DNA of 64,000 nt from a virus. A model generated the notes under the pieces. The model searched no databases, was not told the origin of the DNA, and saw only the letters and a list, made by a program, of their open reading frames with translations. How positions within the stretch are numbered: the first letter of the stretch is position 1; each line of letters opens with the position of its first letter. This document shows, piece after piece, positions 49,612 to 60,445 of the stretch. The position numbers and the translations under genes are program-made. Where the stretch lies: UHGV virus genome UHGV-0179803, one strand, 5' to 3'.

Positions 49612-49939
49612 TTTTAGAATTATAAAAGTTTTAGATGACAAGGGGAAATCTGTAATAGATTTTCCCTTATTTATCAGATATTTGCAGATATTTGAAAATC
49701 ATTAGAAACTTAGGTAATTAGGAGCGTACGAAAATGGATTTTTTAAAAGCATAAGCAATCATTTAGCAAATTAGCCAAATAGATTTTAGCCTATTGCTAT
49801 TGTGTATGCATGTATTTGCATATGCCTTGCACATATCCCCACACACCTCTTCCCACATTCCCACACAGTTCTCGGTTGACCCGCCAATCTCCCCTCCACA
49901 ACTCTCCCAGTAATTTCCTTAAGTACTCGATCTGTTTTT

Positions 49940-50047
49940 CAAAATCGAAATCGGATTCTGAAAATCTCGACAGCTTTTCTCCTCGGTTCTCGATAGGTTT
50001 TTTATTTTCGATTTTGGATTCTGGATCTCGGTCTGGTTCTGGCTAGG
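49940..50047. repeat. direct repeats of a GG(A/T)TTCTG-type unit
   Basis: tcggattctg, cggttctcg, tggattctgg, cggtctgg, tggttctgg within about 110 bp of non-coding DNA. Confidence 0.5.
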
Positions 50048-50185
50048 CCTGCGCCTGAGGAACGAAAGCACTTTTTTATTTTTGAAAGTGGATTTTGAAT
50101 TTCTATATAGAAAAAATTTACCCCCTACCATTTTTGGTAGATAGTCACGGTACGTAATTAGCCTGCTAACTAAATTTTAGATAGT

Positions 50186-50380
50186 TTCATGAGTGATTAT
50201 CACCGTTACTATAAATTGCCGTAACTATAAATCACCGTGCGTTACTATTTTAATTTCACCATGCAACTATAAATCACGGGCCGTTATTATTTATATAGAA
50301 AACTATTACTAACCGTGCGTTATTACCTCAATTTGCTTAGGTTACTATTAATCACCGTAAGTAACTATTTTTTAAATGAT
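50186..50380. repeat. iteron array, ~9 units at ~20-bp period (candidate origin or regulator-binding array)
   Basis: Units such as GTAACTATAAATCACCGTG, GTTACTATTTTAATTTCACCATG, GCAACTATAAATCACGGG, GTTACTATTAATCACCGTAAG spaced 15-22 bp. Confidence 0.65.
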
Positions 50381-50399
50381 AATCATTCTCAAAATATAT

Positions 50400-50700
50400 T
50401 GCGTGCATCCCCGGTGATTGTCTCCCGGCCCCTGGTGCCCCGGCTTGATTATATAATAACAGATCCGGCCCCCATGTCAACAGCTTTTTTAGAAAAATAT
50501 TAGTTACAACATCCTGGCGCCACCTGGCAGGGCCATCATGACCATGATCCGGTCCGGCGCTTGCGCCCTGGTCCATCCTCCGCACATTAGTTACAGCATT
50601 CCAACGACCGATCCCCGATAGTCTGCAACCTGGCGGGGCCGCCTGGTCCACTGGACCGCCTCCCCTGGTCCGGTGGGGAGTCCGGCTTGCAATTCAAAAT
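50400..50700. other. GC-rich island of palindromes rich in CCTGG
   Basis: GGTCCACTGGACC palindrome, CTCCCC...GGGGAG and GGCGCTTGCGCC inverted repeats, about seven CCTGG sites in about 250 bp, inside otherwise AT-rich non-coding DNA. Confidence 0.5.
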
Positions 50701-50732
50701 GTGATCTGTGTCAACCTTTCACCATGTAGCTA

Positions 50733-50760
50733 TTGATCAGGTTACGGCCTAGTGTATTCT
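50733..50760 (+). promoter_or_regulatory. sigma70-like promoter of first micro-gene
   Basis: TTGATC-16 nt-TATTCT. Confidence 0.45.
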
Positions 50761-50828
50761 ATAGGTGAAGGGAAACAAAGGGGAAACGGAAAGCAAAACA
50801 CCAGGCCGCAAGGCAGGAGGAAAATAAA

Positions 50829-51005
50829 ATGAAAGGCATGGTTAACAACAACAACGTAAAAGAGAGGGAAATTATTGTTAATGGTCGTGAGATTGACAAT
50901 AAACGCCGGAAAGCTATGCGTGATGCCCTGGTCAACTGGTTGGATTATGAAAAAATGATGGTAATGGCAGCGGGTGCCGCAGCTGGTGAATTTAACCACA
51001 GATAA
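50829..51005 (+). CDS. micro-gene product (58 aa)
   Basis: ATG after AGGAGGAAAATAAA; below ORF-track cutoff. Confidence 0.4.
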   Translation: MKGMVNNNNVKEREIIVNGREIDNKRRKAMRDALVNWLDYEKMMVMAAGAAAGEFNHR

Positions 51006-51224: not shown

Positions 51225-51255
51225 TTGACACCAGAAAGAAATAAAGTATTATAGA
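51225..51255 (+). promoter_or_regulatory. sigma70 promoter
   Basis: TTGACA-17 nt-ATTATA followed by conserved GAAAGCAGTA box. Confidence 0.6.
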
Positions 51256-51301
51256 TAGTGAAAGCAGTACACAAGGTTAACAAAATATAAGGAGTAACAT
51301 C

Positions 51302-51703
51302 ATGAGCGCTTTTAACACTGATTTCGATTTCTCTGGTCTGGAAGAAGTTCGCGATCTTCGTAACTGCCGCCGCGAAAACGGTTTTTATAAATCTCTGGAC
51401 CTGGTGGCACTGGACCACAAAATGGACCTGGAAGAAGTAGCAACGATTCGTTTCTACCAGTCACCGCGCGGTAACACTGTTTACTGTGTAGTATGGGTAC
51501 ATGAAGCAGGGCACGAATTTTATGCCACTGCTGGCGGGAAAGCTGGTGGCTATGGTTACGATAAAGAGGAGGCCGCATTACGGGAAGCTATCGAGGCGAT
51601 GGGTGTAAAAGCTGGCGATTATGCTCACCCTGAAAAATTTTTAATCCAGCTTGCTCGCTACTTCGGATATGAAAAAGCTAAAGTGATTGAAGCACACGCA
51701 TAA
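51302..51703 (+). CDS. hypothetical protein
   Basis: 133 aa; AAGGAG upstream. Confidence 0.55.
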   Translation: MSAFNTDFDFSGLEEVRDLRNCRRENGFYKSLDLVALDHKMDLEEVATIRFYQSPRGNTVYCVVWVHEAGHEFYATAGGKAGGYGYDKEEAALREAIEAMGVKAGDYAHPEKFLIQLARYFGYEKAKVIEAHA

Positions 51704-51744
51704 GCTGCCTTTTAGATGGCCCCCTGGTGGGGCCATTGATAAAG
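51704..51744 (+). repeat. conserved intergenic hairpin element, copy a
   Basis: GCTGCCTTTTAGATGGCCCCCTGGTGGGGCCATTGATAAAG directly after a stop codon. Confidence 0.5.
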
Positions 51745-51780
51745 GTAACTTGGGGCAACAATAACCGAGAGAAAGAAAAT

Positions 51781-52215
51781 ATGAAACGTTTACCACGCTG
51801 GATCCGCTTTATTAATAAACTTGCCGCAGATGAAAAAATCCAGGCTATGCATAAAGATAACCGCGAACGCCGTGCTGCCTTACGAGATTATCGCCGCATG
51901 TTGGCAAAGTTAGCCAATAAAAATGGCGTTCTTAAACCGTTCCGCAAAGTGATCCACCTGGTCGCTATGGGAGCGCCTAAGGTGGCAAACGTTCCAAACG
52001 TCCATAAGATTGATGACCGCGACGTTGTAAGAGATATTGATAAAGATTTTTCTCCGAAGGCCATCAATCAGCGGATCAACAGCTGCAAAAATAAGAAAGA
52101 TCTTGATAATTTGTTAGATAGCCTCGACGCTTTAGGGTGTGATTATGATTTCTTAGATGACAAGATTAATAAAAAATACCGCGAATTGGCTGGTTATCGC
52201 GTCAACCGGATTTAA
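51781..52215 (+). CDS. hypothetical basic protein
   Basis: 144 aa from ATG (MKRLPRW) after GAGAGAAAG. Confidence 0.5.
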   Translation: MKRLPRWIRFINKLAADEKIQAMHKDNRERRAALRDYRRMLAKLANKNGVLKPFRKVIHLVAMGAPKVANVPNVHKIDDRDVVRDIDKDFSPKAINQRINSCKNKKDLDNLLDSLDALGCDYDFLDDKINKKYRELAGYRVNRI

Positions 52216-52428
52216 CATATCAGAATAGTTGGCCCTGGTGGATCCGATCCGTGCACGGTCCAGGGTATGCCCGAAAACCTCCCCCATTACGCCGCTACGC
52301 CTGTTTTGAAGGTGTGGCGGTGTAGTTGCACCTCTTTGCAAAACACCTCGCCATAATACTTATTTGATGCCTTATTTTCGATACGCTCAAATAATGACCA
52401 ATCAATCGCCCCCACCATGATTTTTTTC

Positions 52429-52456
52429 TTGCAATCCCCCAATGTATGAATACAAT
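52429..52456 (+). promoter_or_regulatory. sigma70-like promoter
   Basis: TTGCAA-16 nt-TACAAT. Confidence 0.5.
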
Positions 52457-52502
52457 AACAATTGAAGGCAGTATTAACAAAAACACAAGAAGGGGAAACA
52501 AA

Positions 52503-52673
52503 ATGGATAAAATCTATTACGTTGTTTATCGCGGCCTTAATGTTGCCTGGTACGACAATTTGGCTGAGGCAATGGAAGAGGCGCACGACCGTTACGACCT
52601 GGGGCGTAACCGCCTTGAAGTGGTGGATAGCGACGGCGTGATCTATTGGTGTAGTGAGGATCTGGAATACTGA
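52503..52673 (+). CDS. micro-gene product (56 aa)
   Basis: ATG (MDKIYYVVY) after AAGGGGAAAC. Confidence 0.45.
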   Translation: MDKIYYVVYRGLNVAWYDNLAEAMEEAHDRYDLGRNRLEVVDSDGVIYWCSEDLEY

Positions 52674-52684
52674 AAAAAAAATAG

Positions 52685-52715
52685 TTGACACGACCGTTTG
52701 AAAGTGTAGTATATA
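52685..52715 (+). promoter_or_regulatory. sigma70 promoter
   Basis: TTGACA then AGTATA/TATATA at 16-19 nt. Confidence 0.6.
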
Positions 52716-52768
52716 AACCGAAGGGGAAAGAAATTTCCCAGAGGTAAAAAACAAAGAGGATAAAAATC

Positions 52769-53044
52769 ATGGCTATCATCGAAAAAGTAAACGTTCCAGC
52801 CACTTATAATAAAGGTTATAACGGTTGGAAAAATTACAATCAGTGGAACGTTGCACTGTGGATCAATAACGACGAAAGTTTATACTTCTTTGCCCTGGGC
52901 TTGATTAATGAGTGTGGCAATAAAGACGCGGCAGCTGATTTGATGGTTTACCGCTTGAAAGAAGAGGGGATCACTCATACGCCTGATGGGGTGCCTTACA
53001 ATAAAACTAACATCCGCGCCGCTATGGTCGGAATGCCGCACTGA
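52769..53044 (+). CDS. hypothetical protein
   Basis: 91 aa; AAGAGGA upstream. Confidence 0.55.
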   Translation: MAIIEKVNVPATYNKGYNGWKNYNQWNVALWINNDESLYFFALGLINECGNKDAAADLMVYRLKEEGITHTPDGVPYNKTNIRAAMVGMPH

Positions 53045-53120
53045 TAGCCGCCTTACCCTGGGGCCGTGGCAGCGCCCCATGAATAAGGTTACTACCCCCA
53101 CAATAACAGGAGGTAACATT

Positions 53121-53231
53121 ATGAACATTATCGCGGCAATCATTGTAGGCTATGCCCTCTTTTTGCTGGGCTTGCACCTGGCGGCAGTTATCAAAGGCCT
53201 GATCGATTTCTTTAAAAAAGATGAAAAATAG
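53121..53231 (+). CDS. small membrane peptide (36 aa)
   Basis: MNIIAAIIVGYALFLLGLHLAAVIKGLIDFFKKDEK; ATG after AGGAGGTAACATT. Confidence 0.4.
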   Translation: MNIIAAIIVGYALFLLGLHLAAVIKGLIDFFKKDEK

Positions 53232-53233
53232 TG

Positions 53234-53261
53234 TTGACAGGTGAGAGAAAATAAATATACT
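53234..53261 (+). promoter_or_regulatory. sigma70 promoter
   Basis: TTGACA-16 nt-TATACT followed by GAAAGCAGTAAAC box. Confidence 0.6.
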
Positions 53262-53311
53262 TAACCATGAAAGCAGTAAACGAGATTAATAAAACACAGG
53301 AGAAAAAGATC

Positions 53312-53722
53312 ATGAAAACTACTTTCCGTAATGCAAATGGTTTAACTGCATTCGCTTTAGCTTGTGGATATGTTCAAATGGTAGAGGGGCGGGATCGTGA
53401 AATGGTGGATCTGTTTAAAGCCCACGGTTGCTACCATGTTCGCGCTTTTAATGCTGATGGCGAGCGGCAAGCATGGTTTAGTGTGCCATCTTTAACTGAT
53501 GCCCGTCGCCATTGGAAAGAACTGGTAAAACTGATTTTCGGTGCACGCATTGCACAAGTGAAACGCTGCAAACGTTACGAAGTGCGCCACGTCCTGGACC
53601 TGAGAGGGGAGGCAGTTTACCAGGTTATCTATCGCTACGATGGGGAGTCTCGCCACGTCGGCTACTGTGAAAACGTGGACGCGGCATGGATGATTGCACA
53701 CCGCGACTATGTAAGCCTATAG
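53312..53722 (+). CDS. hypothetical protein
   Basis: 136 aa from ATG (MKTTFRNANG) after CAGGAGAAAAAG. Confidence 0.55.
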   Translation: MKTTFRNANGLTAFALACGYVQMVEGRDREMVDLFKAHGCYHVRAFNADGERQAWFSVPSLTDARRHWKELVKLIFGARIAQVKRCKRYEVRHVLDLRGEAVYQVIYRYDGESRHVGYCENVDAAWMIAHRDYVSL

Positions 53723-53806
53723 GTTATTTTTCGGTGGCCTGGGTATTGACACCGGGCCATCTATAAAGTAACCTAAAGATCCACACAACGAAGGGGGGGA
53801 ACAATC

Positions 53807-53899
53807 ATGAAAAACTATTCTCACTATTTGATCCGTCGTGATGTTATGATTATGGCCCTGGGCTACCTGGTTATGTTTGCTTTTCGTGTAATGCTGTAA
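53807..53899 (+). CDS. small membrane peptide (30 aa)
   Basis: MKNYSHYLIRRDVMIMALGYLVMFAFRVML; GAAGGGGGGG upstream. Confidence 0.3.
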   Translation: MKNYSHYLIRRDVMIMALGYLVMFAFRVML

Positions 53900-53917
53900 A
53901 ATAAATTAAAAAATTAG

Positions 53918-53946
53918 TTGACACAGTAGCAAAAATAAGTAAACTT
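53918..53946 (+). promoter_or_regulatory. sigma70 promoter
   Basis: TTGACA-17 nt-AAACTT followed by GAAAGAAGTAATTAG box. Confidence 0.5.
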
Positions 53947-53990
53947 AAAACTGAAAGAAGTAATTAGTAAACCACAAAGAGGAAAACATC

Positions 53991-54350
53991 ATGAAACGCA
54001 TCAATAAGGCTATGGCTAACGCAATCCGTGCTTATGTAGTTGACAGCTTAAACTTTGACGACATGGAACACGACAACGACGTTGAGGAACTGAAAGCACG
54101 CTTTGAAGCTGAGCATTTTGACGGCTATTATATCCGTCGCTTTAACGGCAACCGTGTAAAAGCAATGGCCGACTGGTTAGCAGGACTGCCGAGCGGTGTA
54201 GACATTGACTTCTGTAATGATGACATTTTAAACCGCTTGCGTGAGTTCGGAATCATTGACGAAAAAACTAAAGAAGACACTAAAGATCGCTACATTGACG
54301 AATGGTTTGAACTGATGGCGCGGTTTTATGTGGAACTAGCATACAAATAA
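53991..54350 (+). CDS. hypothetical protein
   Basis: 119 aa; AGAGGAAAAC upstream. Confidence 0.55.
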   Translation: MKRINKAMANAIRAYVVDSLNFDDMEHDNDVEELKARFEAEHFDGYYIRRFNGNRVKAMADWLAGLPSGVDIDFCNDDILNRLREFGIIDEKTKEDTKDRYIDEWFELMARFYVELAYK

Positions 54351-54388
54351 AATAGCTTGCTTTTAGATGGCCTCGAAAAAAAAAATAG

Positions 54389-54417
54389 TTGACACGGGGC
54401 CATCGATAAAGTAAACT
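54389..54417 (+). promoter_or_regulatory. sigma70 promoter embedded in conserved hairpin element
   Basis: TTGACA-17 nt-TAAACT; the spacer is the GGGGCCATCGATAAAG arm of the recurrent hairpin element. Confidence 0.55.
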
Positions 54418-54455
54418 AACACACAGTAAGAAGTAACAACAAAGGAGAAAACATT

Positions 54456-54794
54456 ATGAACGCTAACATTGAACTGATTGCACGTCGTGCCGCCCTGGTT
54501 GCAGCTATCGAACAATTGAACAATAAAATTGAAAACTTTGAAATTGATCCAGATGACTACGAAAACGACTACGATGATTTACTAGACGAAGGCGGTGCGG
54601 TAGTGGTAGGCGGTTGCGAATTTCTCCCGTCTAGAATCCTCCGCGAACTGGATCCGATTGCTTATCGTTGCGGCCTGAATGATTATATAGACAACATTGA
54701 TGTAAGCGATGACGCAAACTATTGTGATTTGTGTGACGATCTGGCTGACCTTGAGGCAGAACTAGGGGAAGTCGAGGAAGCGCTACGTAACTAA
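54456..54794 (+). CDS. highly acidic small protein (candidate DNA mimic)
   Basis: 112 aa; about a quarter Asp/Glu, few basic residues; AAAGGAGAAAAC upstream. Confidence 0.55.
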   Translation: MNANIELIARRAALVAAIEQLNNKIENFEIDPDDYENDYDDLLDEGGAVVVGGCEFLPSRILRELDPIAYRCGLNDYIDNIDVSDDANYCDLCDDLADLEAELGEVEEALRN

Positions 54795-54836
54795 GTTGCC
54801 TTTTAGATGGCCTCCCTGGCGGGGCCATCCATAAAG
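54795..54836 (+). repeat. conserved intergenic hairpin element, copy c
   Basis: GTTGCCTTTTAGATGGCCTCCCTGGCGGGGCCATCCATAAAG directly after a stop codon. Confidence 0.5.
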
Positions 54837-54873
54837 ATAATTTAGTGTAACCACAATAAAAAGGAGTTACGCA

Positions 54874-55122
54874 ATGGCAAAATTAATTAACTTTGCAGCG
54901 GTGGACCTGGTAAAAGCTGATTGGTATTATAGCAATGGTCGCGCCGTTTGGTGGCGTGAAGGGGGTGCCGAGGGCAAAGTAAAAGCGCGTATGATTAAAG
55001 GTTACCATTTAGATCGCCCTGTAATTCGTATCAATGGGAAGCTGGTCGCTTTCATGCATATCAAAGCGGTTGACGATATTGAAAAAATTTTGAACGTCAA
55101 CTATTTTAAAATGTTAGGGTGA
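54874..55122 (+). CDS. hypothetical protein
   Basis: 82 aa; AAAAGGAG upstream. Confidence 0.5.
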   Translation: MAKLINFAAVDLVKADWYYSNGRAVWWREGGAEGKVKARMIKGYHLDRPVIRINGKLVAFMHIKAVDDIEKILNVNYFKMLG

Positions 55123-55211
55123 CATGCCAGGCGGGGGCCGTTAGTCCGGCCCCCTCTATCCAACCAGGAGGAGGTGACACTATGCCCAGTTAACAACAGA
55201 GAGGAAAATAT

Positions 55212-55550
55212 ATGGACCTCATGACGTGCATACTCGCATTTATTGCAATAGGTGTAGTCTGGAACAAAGTAAAAAACCAGAGTTATTACGCCAGATGCCA
55301 GGCTTTTCGGGTGAATCCGTGGGATATTGATCCGGGTGCTGATTATGTTATCAAGTACCAGGACCGACACGGCAAACAATATGTAACGCCGTCGCCGATA
55401 CCGGCCTATTGCTTGCTGGAATACACAGACAAGATAAAACAGGCAGGTTTTTTAATTGTTGACCTGTGGGGCCGCCACGGTGACGCGAAAAAATTTATTA
55501 AAGCAGTGGCTGCAAATATTGCAGCACAAGAAAACGACGATGAAGAGTAA
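55212..55550 (+). CDS. hypothetical protein with N-terminal hydrophobic helix
   Basis: 112 aa; GAGAGGAAAA upstream. Confidence 0.5.
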   Translation: MDLMTCILAFIAIGVVWNKVKNQSYYARCQAFRVNPWDIDPGADYVIKYQDRHGKQYVTPSPIPAYCLLEYTDKIKQAGFLIVDLWGRHGDAKKFIKAVAANIAAQENDDEE

Positions 55551-55564
55551 CAGGAGCGCCGATT

Positions 55565-55786
55565 ATGAACATGGTAAACTTTGAAAAAATTACTAAGCGC
55601 AATCATTTATCTGACGAACTACCGGAACGCCGCCAGCGTAACAACAAGCTGAATAAACCGCGTCGATTTGGTAAACTGTGGCGCAACTATTACGACCGTA
55701 ATTTACGCCGCCTGTTACTTGAACGTGAACGCCAACAAATGAGATACGCAGCACGGCGGGAACGGATGAAAGCAGACGAAATTTAA
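55565..55786 (+). CDS. highly basic small protein (Arg-rich)
   Basis: 73 aa; Arg/Lys-rich, nucleic-acid-binding-like composition. Confidence 0.5.
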   Translation: MNMVNFEKITKRNHLSDELPERRQRNNKLNKPRRFGKLWRNYYDRNLRRLLLERERQQMRYAARRERMKADEI

Positions 55787-55792
55787 CCGATA

Positions 55793-55818
55793 GGCCCCCA
55801 GGTGGGGGCCTTTCTTCA
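55793..55818 (+). terminator. intrinsic terminator
   Basis: GGCCCCC-AGGT-GGGGGCC followed by TTTCTTCATTT. Confidence 0.6.
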
Positions 55819-56026
55819 TTTGTAACATAGCGCAATCAATTTTAAGGCCCTTAAAACGCCCTACAACGCAAAGAAGCCTAAAGGTGAACAATTGCATTAC
55901 CCGCCCCCAATTAGTAATTTGTGATCAAGATCTCACAAAAATTAATAGGTAAAAACCTTATTTACTTCTTATAGGATCTGCATACCATTTTAATTGAAAG
56001 AAGAAACACAGCAGGAGGAAAATAAA

Positions 56027-56236
56027 ATGGTCTACTGTGATTATGCCAATGATGCACTGGGCCGCTATGAGAAAGGCCGTTATTATGACCTGAGCGAAAT
56101 AATTGATAACGAGGATTATTACATCGATAAGAATGATGATCATCTAGTCGTTATCCATCGCGTAGTCGATCCGATGTGCTTCGTGGACGTTAGCCCGATT
56201 GTGGCACGCTTTGAAATTATGGTATTGGAGGCTTGA
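56027..56236 (+). CDS. hypothetical small acidic protein
   Basis: 69 aa from ATG (MVYCDYAND) after AGGAGGAAAATAAA. Confidence 0.5.
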   Translation: MVYCDYANDALGRYEKGRYYDLSEIIDNEDYYIDKNDDHLVVIHRVVDPMCFVDVSPIVARFEIMVLEA

Positions 56237-56238
56237 TT

Positions 56239-56340
56239 ATGTTACTTGAAATGCTGATGAATCCGATTATTTCTATGGGCCTGATCTTTGTAGTTGTCTG
56301 CCTGGTTGTTGGTTTTATCTTGAGCAATATGCGGAAGTAA
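56239..56340 (+). CDS. small membrane peptide (33 aa)
   Basis: MLLEMLMNPIISMGLIFVVVCLVVGFILSNMRK; ATG after GGAGG. Confidence 0.35.
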   Translation: MLLEMLMNPIISMGLIFVVVCLVVGFILSNMRK

Positions 56341-56367
56341 AAATTTTTAAAAAGCTATGAAAAAGTG

Positions 56368-56396
56368 TTGACACGGCCCCCCGGTTTGGTATTCTA
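56368..56396 (+). promoter_or_regulatory. sigma70 promoter driving a non-coding purine-rich transcript
   Basis: TTGACA-16/17 nt-TATTCT; no ORF for ~250 nt downstream. Confidence 0.55.
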
Positions 56397-56399
56397 TAG

Positions 56400-56540
56400 C
56401 TGAAAGGAAAAGAAAGGGAACAAGAAGGAAAGTTCCGGGAGCGGGAAAAGAAGGGTAAGGGAAAAGCCTTGAAGCATAGCTAACCGAAGGACCGAGGGAG
56501 CCGGGAGCGGCCCTAAAAGATACTCAAAGAAGTAAAAAGA
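56400..56540 (+). ncRNA. candidate GGA-rich purine-tract non-coding RNA
   Basis: ~140 nt almost entirely A/G with repeated GGA motifs and short hairpins (CCG-GGAG-CGG, GCCG-GGAG-CGGC); promoter upstream, no ORF, next promoter at 56543. Confidence 0.3.
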
Positions 56541-56542
56541 AG

Positions 56543-56571
56543 TTGACAAGGTAACACAAAGCAGTAAAATA
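56543..56571 (+). promoter_or_regulatory. sigma70-like promoter
   Basis: TTGACA-16 nt-TAAAAT; purine-rich leader continues to the next start codon. Confidence 0.5.
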
Positions 56572-56649
56572 AAGTTGAAAGGGAAGGATGCAGGGAGCAA
56601 CAAGGACCGGATAAACCGGGGGGAGCTGAAAGAAAACGAGGAAAATAAA

Positions 56650-56736
56650 ATGAAAGACTACTACAAAGCAAACGAATATGAAAGGGTAGCAGATTTCATT
56701 AAAGAAATGTTAAAAGGTCTGAATAATAAAAAATGA
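56650..56736 (+). CDS. micro-ORF (28 aa)
   Basis: MKDYYKANEYERVADFIKEMLKGLNNKK; ATG after CGAGGAAAATAAA, same start context as neighbouring genes. Confidence 0.3.
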   Translation: MKDYYKANEYERVADFIKEMLKGLNNKK

Positions 56737-56744
56737 GGTGGGGT

Positions 56745-56858
56745 ATGAAAAACAAGCAAGAAAGGCCCGAAGATGACAAATTTACATGGCGTGAGCTTTT
56801 AAACATCTGGTACATCATTTACGGGCAACATTATAAACACAGAGGAGGGAGGTTATAA
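56745..56858 (+). CDS. micro-ORF (37 aa)
   Basis: ATG after GAGGTGGGG; followed by hairpin GGGAGG-TTATAAA-CCTCCC. Confidence 0.3.
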   Translation: MKNKQERPEDDKFTWRELLNIWYIIYGQHYKHRGGRL

Positions 56859-56905
56859 ACCTCCCACCACAAAGAAAGAAACAACAACCAAGCGAGGAAA
56901 ATAAA

Positions 56906-57133
56906 ATGAGCAACGTTATCAAGTTCCCCATGAATCGTGTAAAACCATCTAAAGGTGTGGTTAATTTCGATAATAAGGTTTACCGCATGGCCTGGATCGT
57001 TAGAAACAGCGACAATAAGGGCGATATCTGGGTAGAGGCATTCAGGCGGGAGGTTGATGCTATTTTTTCAAGAAGTGTAAGGGGAGGCCGGATCATTAGA
57101 GGATTTTTCAAAGCGGCACCGGAAGAGGTTTAA
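56906..57133 (+). CDS. hypothetical small protein
   Basis: 75 aa; CGAGGAAAATAAA upstream. Confidence 0.5.
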   Translation: MSNVIKFPMNRVKPSKGVVNFDNKVYRMAWIVRNSDNKGDIWVEAFRREVDAIFSRSVRGGRIIRGFFKAAPEEV

Positions 57134-57138
57134 AAAGG

Positions 57139-57166
57139 TTGACAAATCATAAAAAACAAGTAGACT
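57139..57166 (+). promoter_or_regulatory. sigma70 promoter
   Basis: TTGACA-16 nt-TAGACT followed by GAAAGCAGTAAAC box. Confidence 0.55.
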
Positions 57167-57208
57167 GATAATCGAAAGCAGTAAACAATTTAAAAGGAGA
57201 ACATAATC

Positions 57209-57403
57209 ATGAAACACATCAACATCGTAAACCTGAAAAAAGTTTGCAAAATTGCAATTTTTGTGGAAGGTGTCGAGGCTTATCGTTGCGACTACGAAGA
57301 TTATAAAGATGCGTTAGCTTTCCTCCTGGACGTGGCACACCACAACAATCTAGACTATGAAGCCATCGAGGCAGCCGAAAAAGTTATGGCAATTGCCGCA
57401 TGA
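57209..57403 (+). CDS. hypothetical small protein
   Basis: 64 aa; AAGGAGAACATAATC upstream. Confidence 0.5.
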   Translation: MKHINIVNLKKVCKIAIFVEGVEAYRCDYEDYKDALAFLLDVAHHNNLDYEAIEAAEKVMAIAA

Positions 57404-57450
57404 GTTAGCTTTTAGATGGTCCACGATGCGAAAGTGGATCATCAATAAAG
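57404..57450 (+). repeat. conserved intergenic hairpin element, copy d (with compensatory changes)
   Basis: GTTAGCTTTTAGATGGTCCACGATGCGAAAGTGGATCATCAATAAAG; arms changed but still complementary. Confidence 0.5.
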
Positions 57451-57484
57451 AAAACTCAACCACGAAGCAAGAAGGAGAAACATC

Positions 57485-57715
57485 ATGGACCTTATGACAG
57501 CTGTTGCAACATACGACTATAAAAACTTTTTTGATGTAGTCATGATTAAAAAACCAGCTAACGCCCGGATGCCTGCAAATGGTTACGGTAAAAAATTACC
57601 GACTAACTGGATGATCAATTTCGAGGGCCGTATGCGCCGCGTCTATGTTGATATCTGTGGCAATTCTGGACACAGGTACATCATGGTTAAAGGCCGTAAA
57701 TTTACTATCATGTAA
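57485..57715 (+). CDS. hypothetical small protein
   Basis: 76 aa; AAGGAGAAACATC upstream. Confidence 0.5.
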   Translation: MDLMTAVATYDYKNFFDVVMIKKPANARMPANGYGKKLPTNWMINFEGRMRRVYVDICGNSGHRYIMVKGRKFTIM

Positions 57716-57776
57716 CACGATTTCAACCAGGGCCGGAAGTCCGGCCCTATCATCAACCAACAAAGGGGATCAAAAA

Positions 57777-57896
57777 ATGAAAGACAAGCCTCGACCTTGC
57801 AGCGATACAATTTACCATCTGATAGCATGGTGTGAGATCCTGGCAATTGAAGCCCTTATGGGTGTTGGCATTTACTTTATAGCGATCTATAATTAA
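57777..57896 (+). CDS. small membrane peptide (39 aa)
   Basis: ATG after AAAGGGGATCAAAAA; C-terminal hydrophobic helix. Confidence 0.35.
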   Translation: MKDKPRPCSDTIYHLIAWCEILAIEALMGVGIYFIAIYN

Positions 57897-57929
57897 CGCG
57901 AAAGGAAATAGCCATGAGGAATAAAAGCA

Positions 57930-58286
57930 ATGAGAATCATCGACCTGTTAAACCGTATGCCGGACGTCAACGAGATGGCCCCCGATATGAACGAAATTGA
58001 TCGAGAAGCTGCCGAAAAAGCGGCCCGTAAAATTAAATGCCGTGGGGCCGCTATCGGTGCGGTGCTTTTTGGCCTTGCTTATGCTCATATTGATTTGGTC
58101 CATAACATTTTCCACAATGCACCGATCAAAATCGTGTTAGCCTGGATTGTCTGCTACGTGTGCGGTGAGTACATTTACCCGGTTGCCAAAAAATTGGCCC
58201 CGTGGGCCGTCCTGGGTGCGGTGATCTATTATGTTGCGCCTGTGATTATTGCAATCGTAAAACATTACACAGCGCAACAAATGTAA
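57930..58286 (+). CDS. membrane protein
   Basis: 118 aa; three hydrophobic segments. Confidence 0.5.
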   Translation: MRIIDLLNRMPDVNEMAPDMNEIDREAAEKAARKIKCRGAAIGAVLFGLAYAHIDLVHNIFHNAPIKIVLAWIVCYVCGEYIYPVAKKLAPWAVLGAVIYYVAPVIIAIVKHYTAQQM

Positions 58287-58296
58287 GAGATTCTAA

Positions 58297-58321
58297 GGGC
58301 CGCAAATAAGCGGCCTTTTTT
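58297..58321 (+). terminator. intrinsic terminator (copy 1 of an exactly repeated hairpin)
   Basis: GGCCGC-AAATAA-GCGGCC followed by TTTTTTAT. Confidence 0.7.
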
Positions 58322-58547
58322 ATGGCCCCGCCTCCTGTGTTTAAAATCCTTCCTGTAAGCCCCGCCATTGAGATTTACCCGCAAGATAAGCAAGTGTAAA
58401 GCCCCACCATTCCAGGCCGTTGCAGGCCCTGCCAGGTGCCTAAAAATCGATTTATACGCTTCCACTATTGCCAACCTTCAAAGCGATCCAGACTTAAAAG
58501 TGTTGCCCCTGCAAAATGAGAATAGTTATCATCTTATAAATTTTTCT

Positions 58548-58575
58548 TGCAATGTGGTCTGTTGTGTGTATACTT
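58548..58575 (+). promoter_or_regulatory. sigma70-like promoter
   Basis: TTGCAA-16 nt-TATACT; followed by GGGGAATACCTCCCC hairpin in the leader. Confidence 0.5.
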
Positions 58576-58625
58576 ATTCTTGAAAGGGGAATACCTCCCC
58601 CACCAACAACAAAGGAGTTAAAATT

Positions 58626-58907
58626 ATGTTCCCTAACCTATTCCCTGGTGCGGTTATCAATTTTGAAGCCCGTTATTTGCAAGCTGGTATGATTATCATT
58701 CGAAATGATCGCCCATTGAAATTAACTAGGGTAGAATACAATGAAGGCCAGGCCCCTGGCGAGGAAACTGTAGACTACTTCTTCATGTATGCAGATGAGG
58801 ATCCAAATGATAACACTGGCGAATGGTTTAACTTCTTCCTGCCGGACGAAATGATTAAAGTGCTTTATTATCCTGGTAACCGTTATCCGCTTCATGCGCT
58901 TTTCTAA
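58626..58907 (+). CDS. hypothetical protein
   Basis: 93 aa; AAAGGAG upstream. Confidence 0.55.
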   Translation: MFPNLFPGAVINFEARYLQAGMIIIRNDRPLKLTRVEYNEGQAPGEETVDYFFMYADEDPNDNTGEWFNFFLPDEMIKVLYYPGNRYPLHALF

Positions 58908-58923
58908 AAAAAATCTTCATAAA

Positions 58924-58947
58924 GGCTTGCAATGTGCAGGCCTTTTT
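58924..58947 (+). terminator. intrinsic terminator overlapping a promoter-like site
   Basis: GGCTTGCA-ATG-TGCAGGCC followed by TTTTT; TTGCAA-17 nt-TACTAT spans the same bases. Confidence 0.5.
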
Positions 58948-59002
58948 CCTACTATAAAGGTGAAGAAAGAAGTAAGGCCAACAGTTAGAGGAGTAACAAA
59001 TT

Positions 59003-59212
59003 ATGGGCATGGGAAGAGATAAACGTAAAGCGGCGAAAGCAAGAAAAGCGGCAGCAAAGGCCGCACCTGTTAAAGCTGTACCGTACCACGTCAATATAAA
59101 CAACCTGGAAGTAATGAACAATCCGGCCCCTATGGAAGAATTTAACGATGCGGATTGGAGGGCGGTAGCAAGAATGGTTATCCGGCTTGAACGCCTTGCC
59201 AGGGAAGAGTAA
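59003..59212 (+). CDS. hypothetical small basic protein
   Basis: 69 aa; N-terminal Lys/Ala/Arg-rich segment. Confidence 0.5.
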   Translation: MGMGRDKRKAAKARKAAAKAAPVKAVPYHVNINNLEVMNNPAPMEEFNDADWRAVARMVIRLERLAREE

Positions 59213-59233
59213 AAAAGTTAGAAAAAAAAACGG

Positions 59234-59261
59234 TTGACACAGAATAGAGAAGGCCTATAAT
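59234..59261 (+). promoter_or_regulatory. consensus sigma70 promoter
   Basis: TTGACA-16 nt-TATAAT followed by GAAAGAAGTAATTAG box. Confidence 0.65.
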
Positions 59262-59311
59262 TAAAGTGAAAGAAGTAATTAGAAACAACAAAATAAGAAG
59301 AGGTAAGTATC

Positions 59312-59578
59312 ATGAAAATGGTAGACGTTAAAGGCATCAAGAACGTTAAAATGCAAAAAAATACTCCCGCAAACGTTCTTAAAAAAGCCCTGAGCATCCT
59401 AGAAGCACACAACGCAAAAACGGTGCATCCTGTTAAATTAAATTGCGGTTATGGCTATAAATACAATATTAATAAAGACTGGAGGCTGTTAAACCGTGAT
59501 GGCGAATTTAAAGATTGGTTAATTGTTGAGCACTTGGAGTATAATCGTCTGGTTGGCGTAAAAGGCGCTCATAAATAA
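59312..59578 (+). CDS. hypothetical protein
   Basis: 88 aa; AGAGG upstream. Confidence 0.5.
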   Translation: MKMVDVKGIKNVKMQKNTPANVLKKALSILEAHNAKTVHPVKLNCGYGYKYNINKDWRLLNRDGEFKDWLIVEHLEYNRLVGVKGAHK

Positions 59579-59623
59579 CGCCAGAACATGAAAACACAGC
59601 ATAAAACACTAAGAGGGAACGCC

Positions 59624-59803
59624 ATGATTAGAGAATCCCAAATACTTTACGAAAATGGCAACTACTGGATCCTTGAGGCTAAACCGGGGGTTTACCAGGT
59701 GATGGTAAAAGGTTTAACGCATTCGACTTGCGATAGCGCCTACGCAGATTTTGATCTAGCATTGGCCCGGTGTGAGTACCTGGCACGAAGAGAAAACGCA
59801 TAA
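59624..59803 (+). CDS. hypothetical small protein
   Basis: 59 aa from ATG after AGAGGGA. Confidence 0.45.
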   Translation: MIRESQILYENGNYWILEAKPGVYQVMVKGLTHSTCDSAYADFDLALARCEYLARRENA

Positions 59804-59809
59804 AAGAAA

Positions 59810-59834
59810 GGCCCCACCCAGGGGCCTTAACTTT
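59810..59834 (+). terminator. hairpin, probable terminator
   Basis: GGCCCC-ACCCA-GGGGCC followed by TTAACTTT. Confidence 0.5.
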
Positions 59835-59858
59835 ATGAAAAAAAATCTGAAAAAATAG

Positions 59859-59887
59859 TTGACACCTTGCTGGGATAGTATATTATT
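59859..59887 (+). promoter_or_regulatory. sigma70 promoter
   Basis: TTGACA followed by AT-rich -10 region and GAAAGCAGTA box. Confidence 0.5.
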
Positions 59888-59929
59888 AAATTGAAAGCAG
59901 TACTAAACCACTTGAAAGAGGAAAAGATC

Positions 59930-60412
59930 ATGAAAGCGTTCAAATATGTTTTAGCGGCCCTGGCGATGGTTATCGGTGTAAATGTGAATGCTGGCGGTTT
60001 TAGAGTCGAGGCCCCCGAGCATATCAATCCGGTTTATGTGAAAGAAATTTTAATGAATTGCGCCGGGGAAATGGTTGCACCTGATGCGGTGTTTAATCCT
60101 GATGCACCGATCAACGTTAAAAAAGGTTGGCTGGCTAAAGCTGACAAAGAATGTAAAACATTGGTAAATAATGTTATCGTTCACGCCCTGATTGTTGACC
60201 TGATTATCAAGAAAGGCCCTGAAAATATGAAGGGCATGGACGAAGAGGAGTTTAAAGAGTATTTCTATAACGAAGAAATGAAAGTGGAGAATTACCATTT
60301 TGATGAAAACGGTTATGAAGATGTTAAAGCTAACTTGAAAGATGTTTACAATCTTGCGCTTGAAAATCCTAAAGCCGCCCATGCTATCAAGGTGCGAATG
60401 ATGGGAAAATAA
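59930..60412 (+). CDS. secreted/periplasmic protein
   Basis: 160 aa from ATG after AAGAGGAAAAG; signal-peptide-like MKAFKYVLAALAMVIGVNVNA. Confidence 0.55.
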   Translation: MKAFKYVLAALAMVIGVNVNAGGFRVEAPEHINPVYVKEILMNCAGEMVAPDAVFNPDAPINVKKGWLAKADKECKTLVNNVIVHALIVDLIIKKGPENMKGMDEEEFKEYFYNEEMKVENYHFDENGYEDVKANLKDVYNLALENPKAAHAIKVRMMGK

Positions 60413-60417
60413 AAGTA

Positions 60418-60445
60418 TTGACAAGCTGCCAGGTTGTTGTAAGAT
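60418..60445 (+). promoter_or_regulatory. sigma70-like promoter
   Basis: TTGACA-16 nt-TAAGAT. Confidence 0.55.

Follow-up and report, generated by a model that had tools for sequence, protein, structure and literature searches.

What is the role of about 250 bases of purine-rich DNA that follow a strong promoter and encode no protein? This question is raised by a tract downstream of position 56368 in the UHGV virus genome UHGV-0179803, of which we analyzed a 64,000-nucleotide (nt) stretch, here referred to as the window, corresponding to the final 64 kb of the 139.5-kb metagenomic contig ERZ1034815 NODE_8. Judging from its proteins, the source phage is an uncultured myovirus and a distant relation of the rV5-like Vequintavirinae, with 53% identity between its rIIA protein and the rV5-like counterpart and ~50% identity for one early protein. 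An initial annotation of the tract proposed a sponge RNA of the CsrB/RsmZ type and listed as an alternative an unusually long leader for two downstream micro-open reading frames (micro-ORFs). The evidence described below favors the latter, i.e., we estimate with a probability of roughly 0.55 that the locus is an expanded cis-acting 5' leader with two tandem early promoters (P1 and P2), two micro-ORFs, and three hairpins under selection. The original observation was borne out in part; it missed P2, a second and nearly invariant promoter inside the tract.

Relatives of the locus were found by exact-protein look-ups, two IMG/VR scans, and one metagenome scan; the pattern scans of IMG/VR and the metagenome added five close relatives and no distant ones. 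Besides the window locus, six distinct versions (L002, L003/L006, L004/L005/L010, L007/L008, L009, and L011) are 85-94% identical to the window across 56340-56910. All column comparisons reported here are based on these seven sequences (the window and the six versions). The tract DNA had no match among 50,697 phage records, and a megablast search with the region 50-64 kb matched only scraps, in rV5-like phages. The 75-amino acid (aa) protein encoded downstream of the micro-ORFs has no distant homologues among 5.8 billion proteins, in which only two near-identical clusters were detected; because deep homologues of this protein are absent, no deeper conservation comparison is possible.

The tract is a real, non-coding, purine-rich stretch of ~250 bases. 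No other 240-nt segment of the window is as rich in purines as positions 56402-56641 (77.5% versus a mean of 0.527 with a standard deviation [SD] of 0.053, i.e., 4.7 SD above the mean), which also have its highest GGA density (16 versus 3.5 ± 2.1 per 240 nt). From 56400 to 56650, the purine content is 77-78%, and the sequence after the two tandem promoters has a GC skew of +0.41 and an AT skew of +0.63. Across all seven distinct sequences, the tract is 244-255 nt long and contains 76.5-77.9% purines. The description of the tract as almost pure A/G is therefore apt in that it holds the purine record of the window but overstated in that 23% of its bases are pyrimidines and its longest unbroken purine run is 19 nt. 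We consider the tract non-coding because frame-shifting indels are present in the six distinct close relatives, which differ within it by 1, 2, and 3 nt and thereby shift any reading frame. All three plus-strand frames contain stops, and the tract has no plus-strand ORF of at least 25 aa except for a TTG-started in-frame extension of micro-ORF1; with this exception, the earlier statement that the tract lacks an ORF holds. Coding potential was rejected for both strands, as the frame-shifting indels are also crossed by the minus-strand ORFs (69 and 52 aa).

The promoter initially reported at 56368, here P1, was confirmed with its two hexamers and its TG-containing spacer and is conserved in the relatives (Table 1). 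In a consensus scan, P1 scores 10/12 with TG and has a predicted start near 56402, and the window has just one other copy of its −10 context TATTCTATAG, at 50755. P2, which scores 11/12, is 175 nt apart from P1 and lies within a 32-nt tandem duplication (56522-51 and 56554-83). The locus accordingly contains two consensus-like, conserved promoters on the same strand. Constraint was measured as the fraction of alignment columns that vary across the seven sequences. This fraction is 0.07 for the P1 core (2/28 columns) and 0.03 for the P2 core together with its start region (1/40 columns; 99.3% pairwise identity), and the conservation of the latter exceeds that of every flanking gene. For comparison, pooled third codon positions give 0.30. 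Unit A, the leader segment between P1 and P2, has a value of 0.29 (calculated for 56396-56494), which corresponds to the third-codon-position rate; H3, one of the three hairpins described below, and the region upstream of P2 reach 0.52 and 0.59, respectively; and Unit B, which leads from P2 to micro-ORF1, has a value of 0.16 (56583-56649), or about half the third-position rate. Thus, P1 and P2 are the most conserved segments of the locus, and the sequence between them drifts like third codon positions, such that the primary sequence of Unit A is near-neutral.

Despite this drift in Unit A, compensatory changes indicate that some plus-strand RNA structure is under selection and that three hairpins (H1, H3, and H4) are maintained. 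Using RNAalifold, we observed that H1 has undergone a double change from G-C to A-U in L003 and L011 and that 100% of its cells are paired. In H3, one pair occurs as C-G, G-C, U-G, and G-U, and two others have changed from G-C to A-U in L011; its GGAG loop is not essential and is replaced by UGAAAA on a shortened stem in L007/L008 and by GGGC in L009. In H4, a C-G pair has become U-G in L002, and the hairpin is invariant in the other sequences. For the three hairpins combined, 99.1% of the cells in the seven sequences are paired and four pairs are changed on both sides. None of 500 shuffles matched the percentage paired, the number of double-change cells, or the covariation score, and sliding the partners by one column reduced the pairing of the hairpin set to 55%. 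Because the minus strand could not form the wobble pairs, the folded molecule is the plus-strand RNA. By contrast, the leader as a whole folds no more stably than shuffles (z −0.28), with 35% of it paired. Of the two GGAG hairpins named in the initial annotation, GCCG-GGAG-CGGC lies within the covariation-supported H3, while CCG-GGAG-CGG (56435-56444), which overlaps H1, is paired in 81% of cells, not above shuffles, and loses its pairing with no compensating change in four of the seven sequences. We also noticed an 11-nt perfect inverted repeat with one arm in the P1 spacer (56377-56387; CCCCCCGGTTT) and the other 225 nt apart at 56613-56623 (AAACCGGGGGG). The AAACCGGGGGG arm consists of the 3' half of H4 and a G run, and the repeat is 10 nt long in the relatives. 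Pairing of the arms in RNA would require a transcript that reads through from upstream; alternatively, they could form a paired DNA site. We rejected the arm CCCCCGGTTT as a recurrent operator, its sole other exact copy being inside a gene.

The tract is followed by two micro-ORFs that, from their substitution patterns, are genuinely coding. In L011, ORF1 differs at 25 nucleotides and has gained 3 nt in frame, and the peptide is still similar. In ORF2, the variable columns at the three codon positions number 3, 2, and 12 of 37, and an in-frame indel of 3 nt is present; for the 75-aa gene, the corresponding numbers are 2, 5, and 27 of 75. The PHROG match of ORF2 has an E value of 3.5e-7, and tblastn matches and the locus of the rV5-like phage RudolfGeigy agree with it; in rV5-like phages, the phrog_16356 protein follows a small membrane protein, as at the window locus. 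The ORF2 counterpart in RudolfGeigy is bas52_0134 (L013 1390-1602), the acidic N-terminal half of which has no counterpart in the window; P1, the tract, P2, and ORF1 occupy the place of this missing half. A fusion of ORF1 and ORF2 by frameshifting was rejected, as their relative frame differs between relatives (2-nt indel). No plus-strand terminator-like site was detected across 55811-58047, including between P1 and the genes, and H3 is followed by CCCUAAAAG without a U run. At the level of sequence, the non-coding leader is thus joined to the coding ORF1 and ORF2 with no terminator between them. A strong hairpin at 56844-56868 (−15.5 kcal/mol, z −4.2), conserved in the relatives, places the stop codon of ORF2 in its loop and is not followed by a U run; it may be a processing, stabilizing, or coupling element before the 75-aa gene.

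Table 1. Coordinates of the purine-rich tract, its promoters, hairpins, and micro-ORFs, and of the sister cassette in the window
Feature	Coordinates	Strand	Description
Sister cassette	50733..50831	+	−10 region TATTCTATAG; ~60-nt leader; drives a 58-aa gene
A/T-rich UP-like region upstream of P1	56341..56367	+	Also the mosaic boundary at which the upstream module switches in L002
Promoter P1	56368..56395	+	TTGACA 56368-56373; 16-nt spacer with TG; TATTCT 56390-56395
Unit A	56402..56542	+	Purine-rich non-coding leader segment P1-P2; indels; G 32%
Hairpin H1	56417..56436	+	GGAAC[AAGAAGGAAA]GUUCC; GGA in 10-nt loop; −5.4 kcal/mol
Hairpin H3	56496..56514	+	GGG(A)GCCG[GGAG]CGGCCCU; 7-bp stem; bulged A; −11.1 kcal/mol
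UP-like region of P2	56516..56542	+	A-rich; indel-prone; mean pairwise identity 70%
Promoter P2 and start region TGAAAGG	56543..56582	+	TTGACA 56543-48; TAAAAT 56565-70
Unit B	56583..56649	+	Leader P2 to micro-ORF1; ends in shared ribosome site GAGGAAAATAAA before ATG
Hairpin H4	56607..56619	+	CCGG[AUAAA]CCGG; −6.0 kcal/mol
Micro-ORF1	56650..56736	+	28 aa (MKDYYKANEYERVADFIKEMLKGLNNKK); ORF kept in all relatives
Micro-ORF2	56745..56858	+	37 aa; homologue of the phrog_16356 proteins (70 aa) of rV5-like phages, C-terminal half

Based on these observations, we suggest that the tract would serve a small early operon, composed of micro-ORF1, micro-ORF2, and the 75-aa gene, as its non-coding 5' leader. 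P1 and P2, as tandem sigma-70-type promoters, would both fire and feed the three genes. The leader would be an expanded copy of a cassette of promoter, leader, and ribosome site, the normal ~60-nt form of which is located at 50.7 kb, and its extra ~190 nt, P2 included, would have arisen through local duplications. As is true of all early leaders of the source phage, the leader is purine-rich, G-rich, C-poor, and mostly unpaired; it may therefore be open and a poor Rho substrate with many Shine-Dalgarno-like words, and H1, H3, and H4 probably act on the RNA itself, i.e., on its stability or processing, or as a site for some binding factor. Tandem strong early promoters with a long untranslated leader are present in phage T7, in which A1, A2, and A3 lie upstream of gene 0.3. 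The locus resembles this arrangement in having tandem consensus-like promoters for host RNA polymerase and a non-coding leader before the first gene of an early unit. It differs in that no long hairpin of the RNase III type was seen in the tract, in its extreme purine content, and in that it drives ORFs of 28 and 37 aa.

The proposal that the leader is an expanded cassette is based on a comparison with the other early genes. From ~50.8 kb to the end of the window, the phage carries a block of small plus-strand genes with a strong sigma-70-type promoter before each. About 12 of these early promoters (plus strand, 51225-60445) have one design, with an A-rich upstream region, TTGACA, N16, and TAnnnT, and also share a conserved start region tGAAAGcAGTAa, a leader of 30-55 nt, a ribosome site, and ATG. 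The tGAAAGcAGTAa motif is absent from the leaders of the rV5-like phage MiataMamis; within the tract, it recurs inside the P2 spacer as AAAGCAGTAAAA (56558-56569). All 12 other early leaders are 67-81% purine and 32-57 nt long. Thus, the composition of the tract is ordinary for the leaders of the source phage, and the tract is unusual only in its length (~250 nt) and its higher G content (32% versus ~20% in the other early leaders). The closest counterpart is the sister cassette at 50.7 kb. The start of its leader, TGAAgGGaAA..AAGGGgAA..GGAAAG, is homologous to the start of the tract (43 nt aligned), and the ribosome site and start codon are identical in 19/19 nt (GAGGAAAATAAAATGAAAG). The two also share TATTCTATAG and a small GC hairpin before the ribosome site, but the sister cassette has no internal promoter and a leader of ~60 nt, while the tract has ~190 nt more.

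The tract contains several traces of how the extra sequence could have grown, i.e., the 10-nt tandem repeat of GAAAGGAAAA at the 5' end of Unit A, the direct repeats, of which four are common to Unit A and Unit B and a fifth (CCGGGAGCGG) is repeated within Unit A, and the 32-nt tandem duplication that gave rise to P2. The same traces fit an explanation in which Unit A is young filler, generated by slippage and duplication between a duplicated promoter pair, with no function beyond carrying P1. Its variability equals that of third codon positions, it is rich in indels as well as in internal repeats, and the tract is absent from rV5-like phages in a region that is mosaic: MiataMamis and RudolfGeigy have a syntenic early region and the ORF2 homologue without a long purine tract, and the leaders at the syntenic promoters of rV5-like phages are short. 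Neutral filler, however, would not be expected to keep H1 and H3 paired by compensatory changes, nor to maintain a near-constant length and purine content in the seven sequences. We therefore regard pure filler as unlikely.

A different possibility is that the tract acts as DNA or as an RNA-DNA hybrid, either by an R-loop, formed when strong transcription enters the purine-rich non-template strand, that primes replication, as in ColE1, T4 oriF, and the T7 tandem-promoter origin, or by H-DNA or a G-quadruplex; the initial annotation had likewise listed a polypurine DNA structure. Two tandem promoters followed by marked GC and AT skews would suit an R-loop, and the window sequence has one canonical G-quadruplex motif (56437-56461). 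This motif is missing in all six relatives, and the 19-nt purine run is interrupted in L002 and L011, and on these grounds we rejected both G-quadruplex and H-DNA. The G-U and U-G pairs in H3 and H4 point instead to a folded plus-strand RNA. An origin at the tract is also unsupported: there is no skew inflection at 56.4 kb, and iteron-like repeats at 50205-50371 mark a better candidate. Altogether, a DNA-level or R-loop element seems highly improbable.

The expanded leader also has to be weighed against the idea behind the initial annotation, namely, that the GGA-rich RNA binds CsrA or another protein recognizing single-stranded purine motifs. Such binding could titrate the protein in trans early in infection, or the GGA sites, including that in the Shine-Dalgarno sequence, could place translation of the micro-ORFs under its control in cis. 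We analyzed E. coli CsrB and CsrC with the same scripts as the tract as positive controls. The GGA density of the tract (6.4 per 100 nt) is similar to that of CsrB (6.0) and CsrC (5.7), the GGA triplets have a mean unpaired probability of 0.78, and the covariation-supported H1 and H3 carry GGA in their loops. ANGGA is present 10 times versus 5.6 ± 2.0 expected (p 0.03), and 5-6 GGA of Unit B lie no more than 75 nt from the start codon, including one in the Shine-Dalgarno sequence. The claim of GGA richness is nonetheless only partly upheld: the 16 GGA are the densest in the window but not clearly enriched given the base composition, with 11.7 ± 2.4 expected from mononucleotide shuffles and 12.4 ± 2.2 from dinucleotide shuffles (p ~0.05-0.08), and the relatives have 13-16 (p 0.05-0.27 against composition). 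The z score for GGA excess is 1.8 for the tract compared to 3.5 for CsrB and 2.7 for CsrC. The word that is truly over-represented in the window is GGGAGC, with five copies versus 0.2 expected, two of which are GGAAGC in most relatives.

Other features set the tract further apart from the two controls. Only 2/16 GGA are located fully in hairpin loops, compared to 9/22 in CsrB and 4/14 in CsrC, and the paired fraction is 0.35 compared to 0.56 and 0.60, respectively. No Csr/Rsm family of Rfam was detected at the gathering threshold in the window, nor at an E value of ≤10 in 55700-57300. A lack of conserved GGA motifs in homologous phages had been named as a refuting outcome; GGA columns vary as much as others among the seven sequences (31-33% versus 28.5%; limited power at 85-94% identity). 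Moreover, the rate of change in Unit A is that of third codon positions, two of seven lineages (L007/L008 and L009) have lost the GGAG loop of H3, the single AAGGAUG site is missing from most relatives, no Rho-independent terminator would define a discrete RNA, and the leader composition is phage-wide rather than tract-specific. With respect to another purine-binding protein, (ARN)n triplets for the distal face of Hfq are not enriched, the longest run being 4-6 triplets versus 5.1-5.6 in shuffles (p 0.4-0.99). By the features testable in sequence, the tract is not a member of the CsrB/RsmZ families, and the sponge as originally proposed is unsupported: it lacks an Rfam match and a terminator, its GGA are not preferentially conserved, and few of them are in loops.

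Local similarities to csrB and csrC nevertheless deserve mention. When csrB and csrC were compared with the entire window by BLAST, the top three matches all fell in the tract or the sister leader. In Smith-Waterman comparisons with di-, tri-, and tetranucleotide-preserving shuffles, the tract gave p 0.0-0.01 for csrC (0/400 to 4/400) and p 0.014-0.04 for csrB, and the 50.7-kb leader gave p ≤0.005 for csrB. The similar segments are CAGGGAGCAACAA (csrB) and GAAAgGGAAC..GGA..GTTCCGG (csrC). We rate these similarities as weak because reversed csrC scores 17 versus 18 for true csrC, L009 has GUAA in place of the csrB-like GCAA loop in the sister leader, CAGGGAGCAACAA is changed in other relatives (GGAAGCGA in most), and a genome-wide pattern scan for the csrC-like hairpin returned csrC of Escherichia/Shigella and scattered unrelated taxa, none closer to the phage. 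Overall, the tract resembles CsrB and CsrC in GGA density, purine richness, and the presence of some GGA in hairpin loops, besides the local similarities, while it differs in having no covariance-model match and no terminator, an internal promoter, and translated genes after it.

CsrA-repressed leaders such as pgaA, glgC, and cstA carry multiple GGA sites, including one that overlaps the Shine-Dalgarno sequence, and leader-type CsrA sponges exist, e.g., the Salmonella fim leader. By analogy, the tract may be likened to these in being a long untranslated leader with several GGA, one overlapping the Shine-Dalgarno sequence, and a leader of the glgC/pgaA/fim type could be both CsrA-regulated and CsrA-titrating. 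In contrast to the glgC, cstA, and pgaA leaders, the GGA sites of the tract follow the phage-wide leader composition and are not preferentially conserved. Considering these points jointly, we find binding of CsrA or a similar protein, in trans or in cis, rather unlikely. A bolder version, in which the early leader of a lytic phage is a decoy for CsrA or another purine/GGA binder that resets host post-transcriptional control, with H1 and CAGGGAGCAACAA as mimics or captured fragments of csrC and csrB, appears decidedly doubtful to us. If this version were true, the decoy would be transcribed from two strong promoters during the first minutes after infection and would, as far as the literature we found goes, be the first known phage RNA titrating CsrA and a new route of host takeover; we found no description in the literature of a phage-encoded CsrA sponge or of this element.

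Several points also weigh against the expanded cis-acting leader that we favor. Promoter use and RNA ends are predictions. The leader of 250 nt is six times the phage norm and has no rV5-like counterpart, a length for which the reading does not account. The selection of H1 and H3 inside an otherwise freely drifting segment shows that Unit A is more than a spacer, and the P2 spacer is closer to invariance than promoter function requires. Finally, a pure leader does not predict the mild ANGGA enrichment or the local similarities to csrC and csrB. If this interpretation is correct, the locus would clearly illustrate, in a natural setting, the way in which a phage assembles and enlarges its early cassettes of promoter, open purine-rich leader, and fixed ribosome site, as well as the fact that very small early genes (28 and 37 aa) receive the strongest expression signals. 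It could be useful in the annotation of uncultured rV5-like genomes and in the mining of promoter and leader parts. The covariation-supported hairpins mark a cis-acting RNA element.

Several additional observations were made in the regions surrounding the locus. In L002, a different module replaces the genes upstream of P1, while P1, the tract, and the micro-ORFs are retained. A comparison of L002 1-5440 with window 55700-56340 showed that unrelated sequence stands in place of the two genes upstream of P1, which encode 69 and 33 aa, and that homology restarts exactly at the A/T-rich region upstream of P1, which suggests that promoters serve as recombination joints between early-gene modules. 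Upstream of the 69-aa gene, a palindrome TTGTGATCAAGATCTCACAA (TGTGA-N8-TCACA) at 55929-55948 is CRP-like with the wrong spacing; it lies in a 215-nt gap without a strong promoter, between a terminator (55792-55811) and this gene.

Just upstream of the first early gene, ~1.2 kb (49612-50828) are without a convincing ORF. This region has 4-5 iteron-like direct repeats of ~31 nt with a spacing of 36-42 nt (50205-50371), a 38-nt repeat present three times (49923-50097), a CU-rich stretch (~49830-49915), and a strong leftward promoter on the minus strand (50480-50453; TTGACA-16-TATTAT with TG). From its sequence, we consider it a candidate replication origin or regulatory hub.

Among the neighboring genes, the 73-aa protein encoded at 55565-55786 matches Pfam Phage_1_1 (T7 gene 1.1 protein) with an E value of 3.4e-9, above the curated cut-off, and phrog_8176. 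An 88-aa early protein (59312-59578; L001 8407-8673) has a precomputed Pfam match to ParE_like (PF24732), and its gene follows the one promoter in the region with a perfect consensus (TTGACA-16-TATAAT at 59234). Lastly, the window contains a cluster of three tRNA genes on the minus strand at 14557-14800 (Met-CAT, Thr-TGT, and Arg-CCT).

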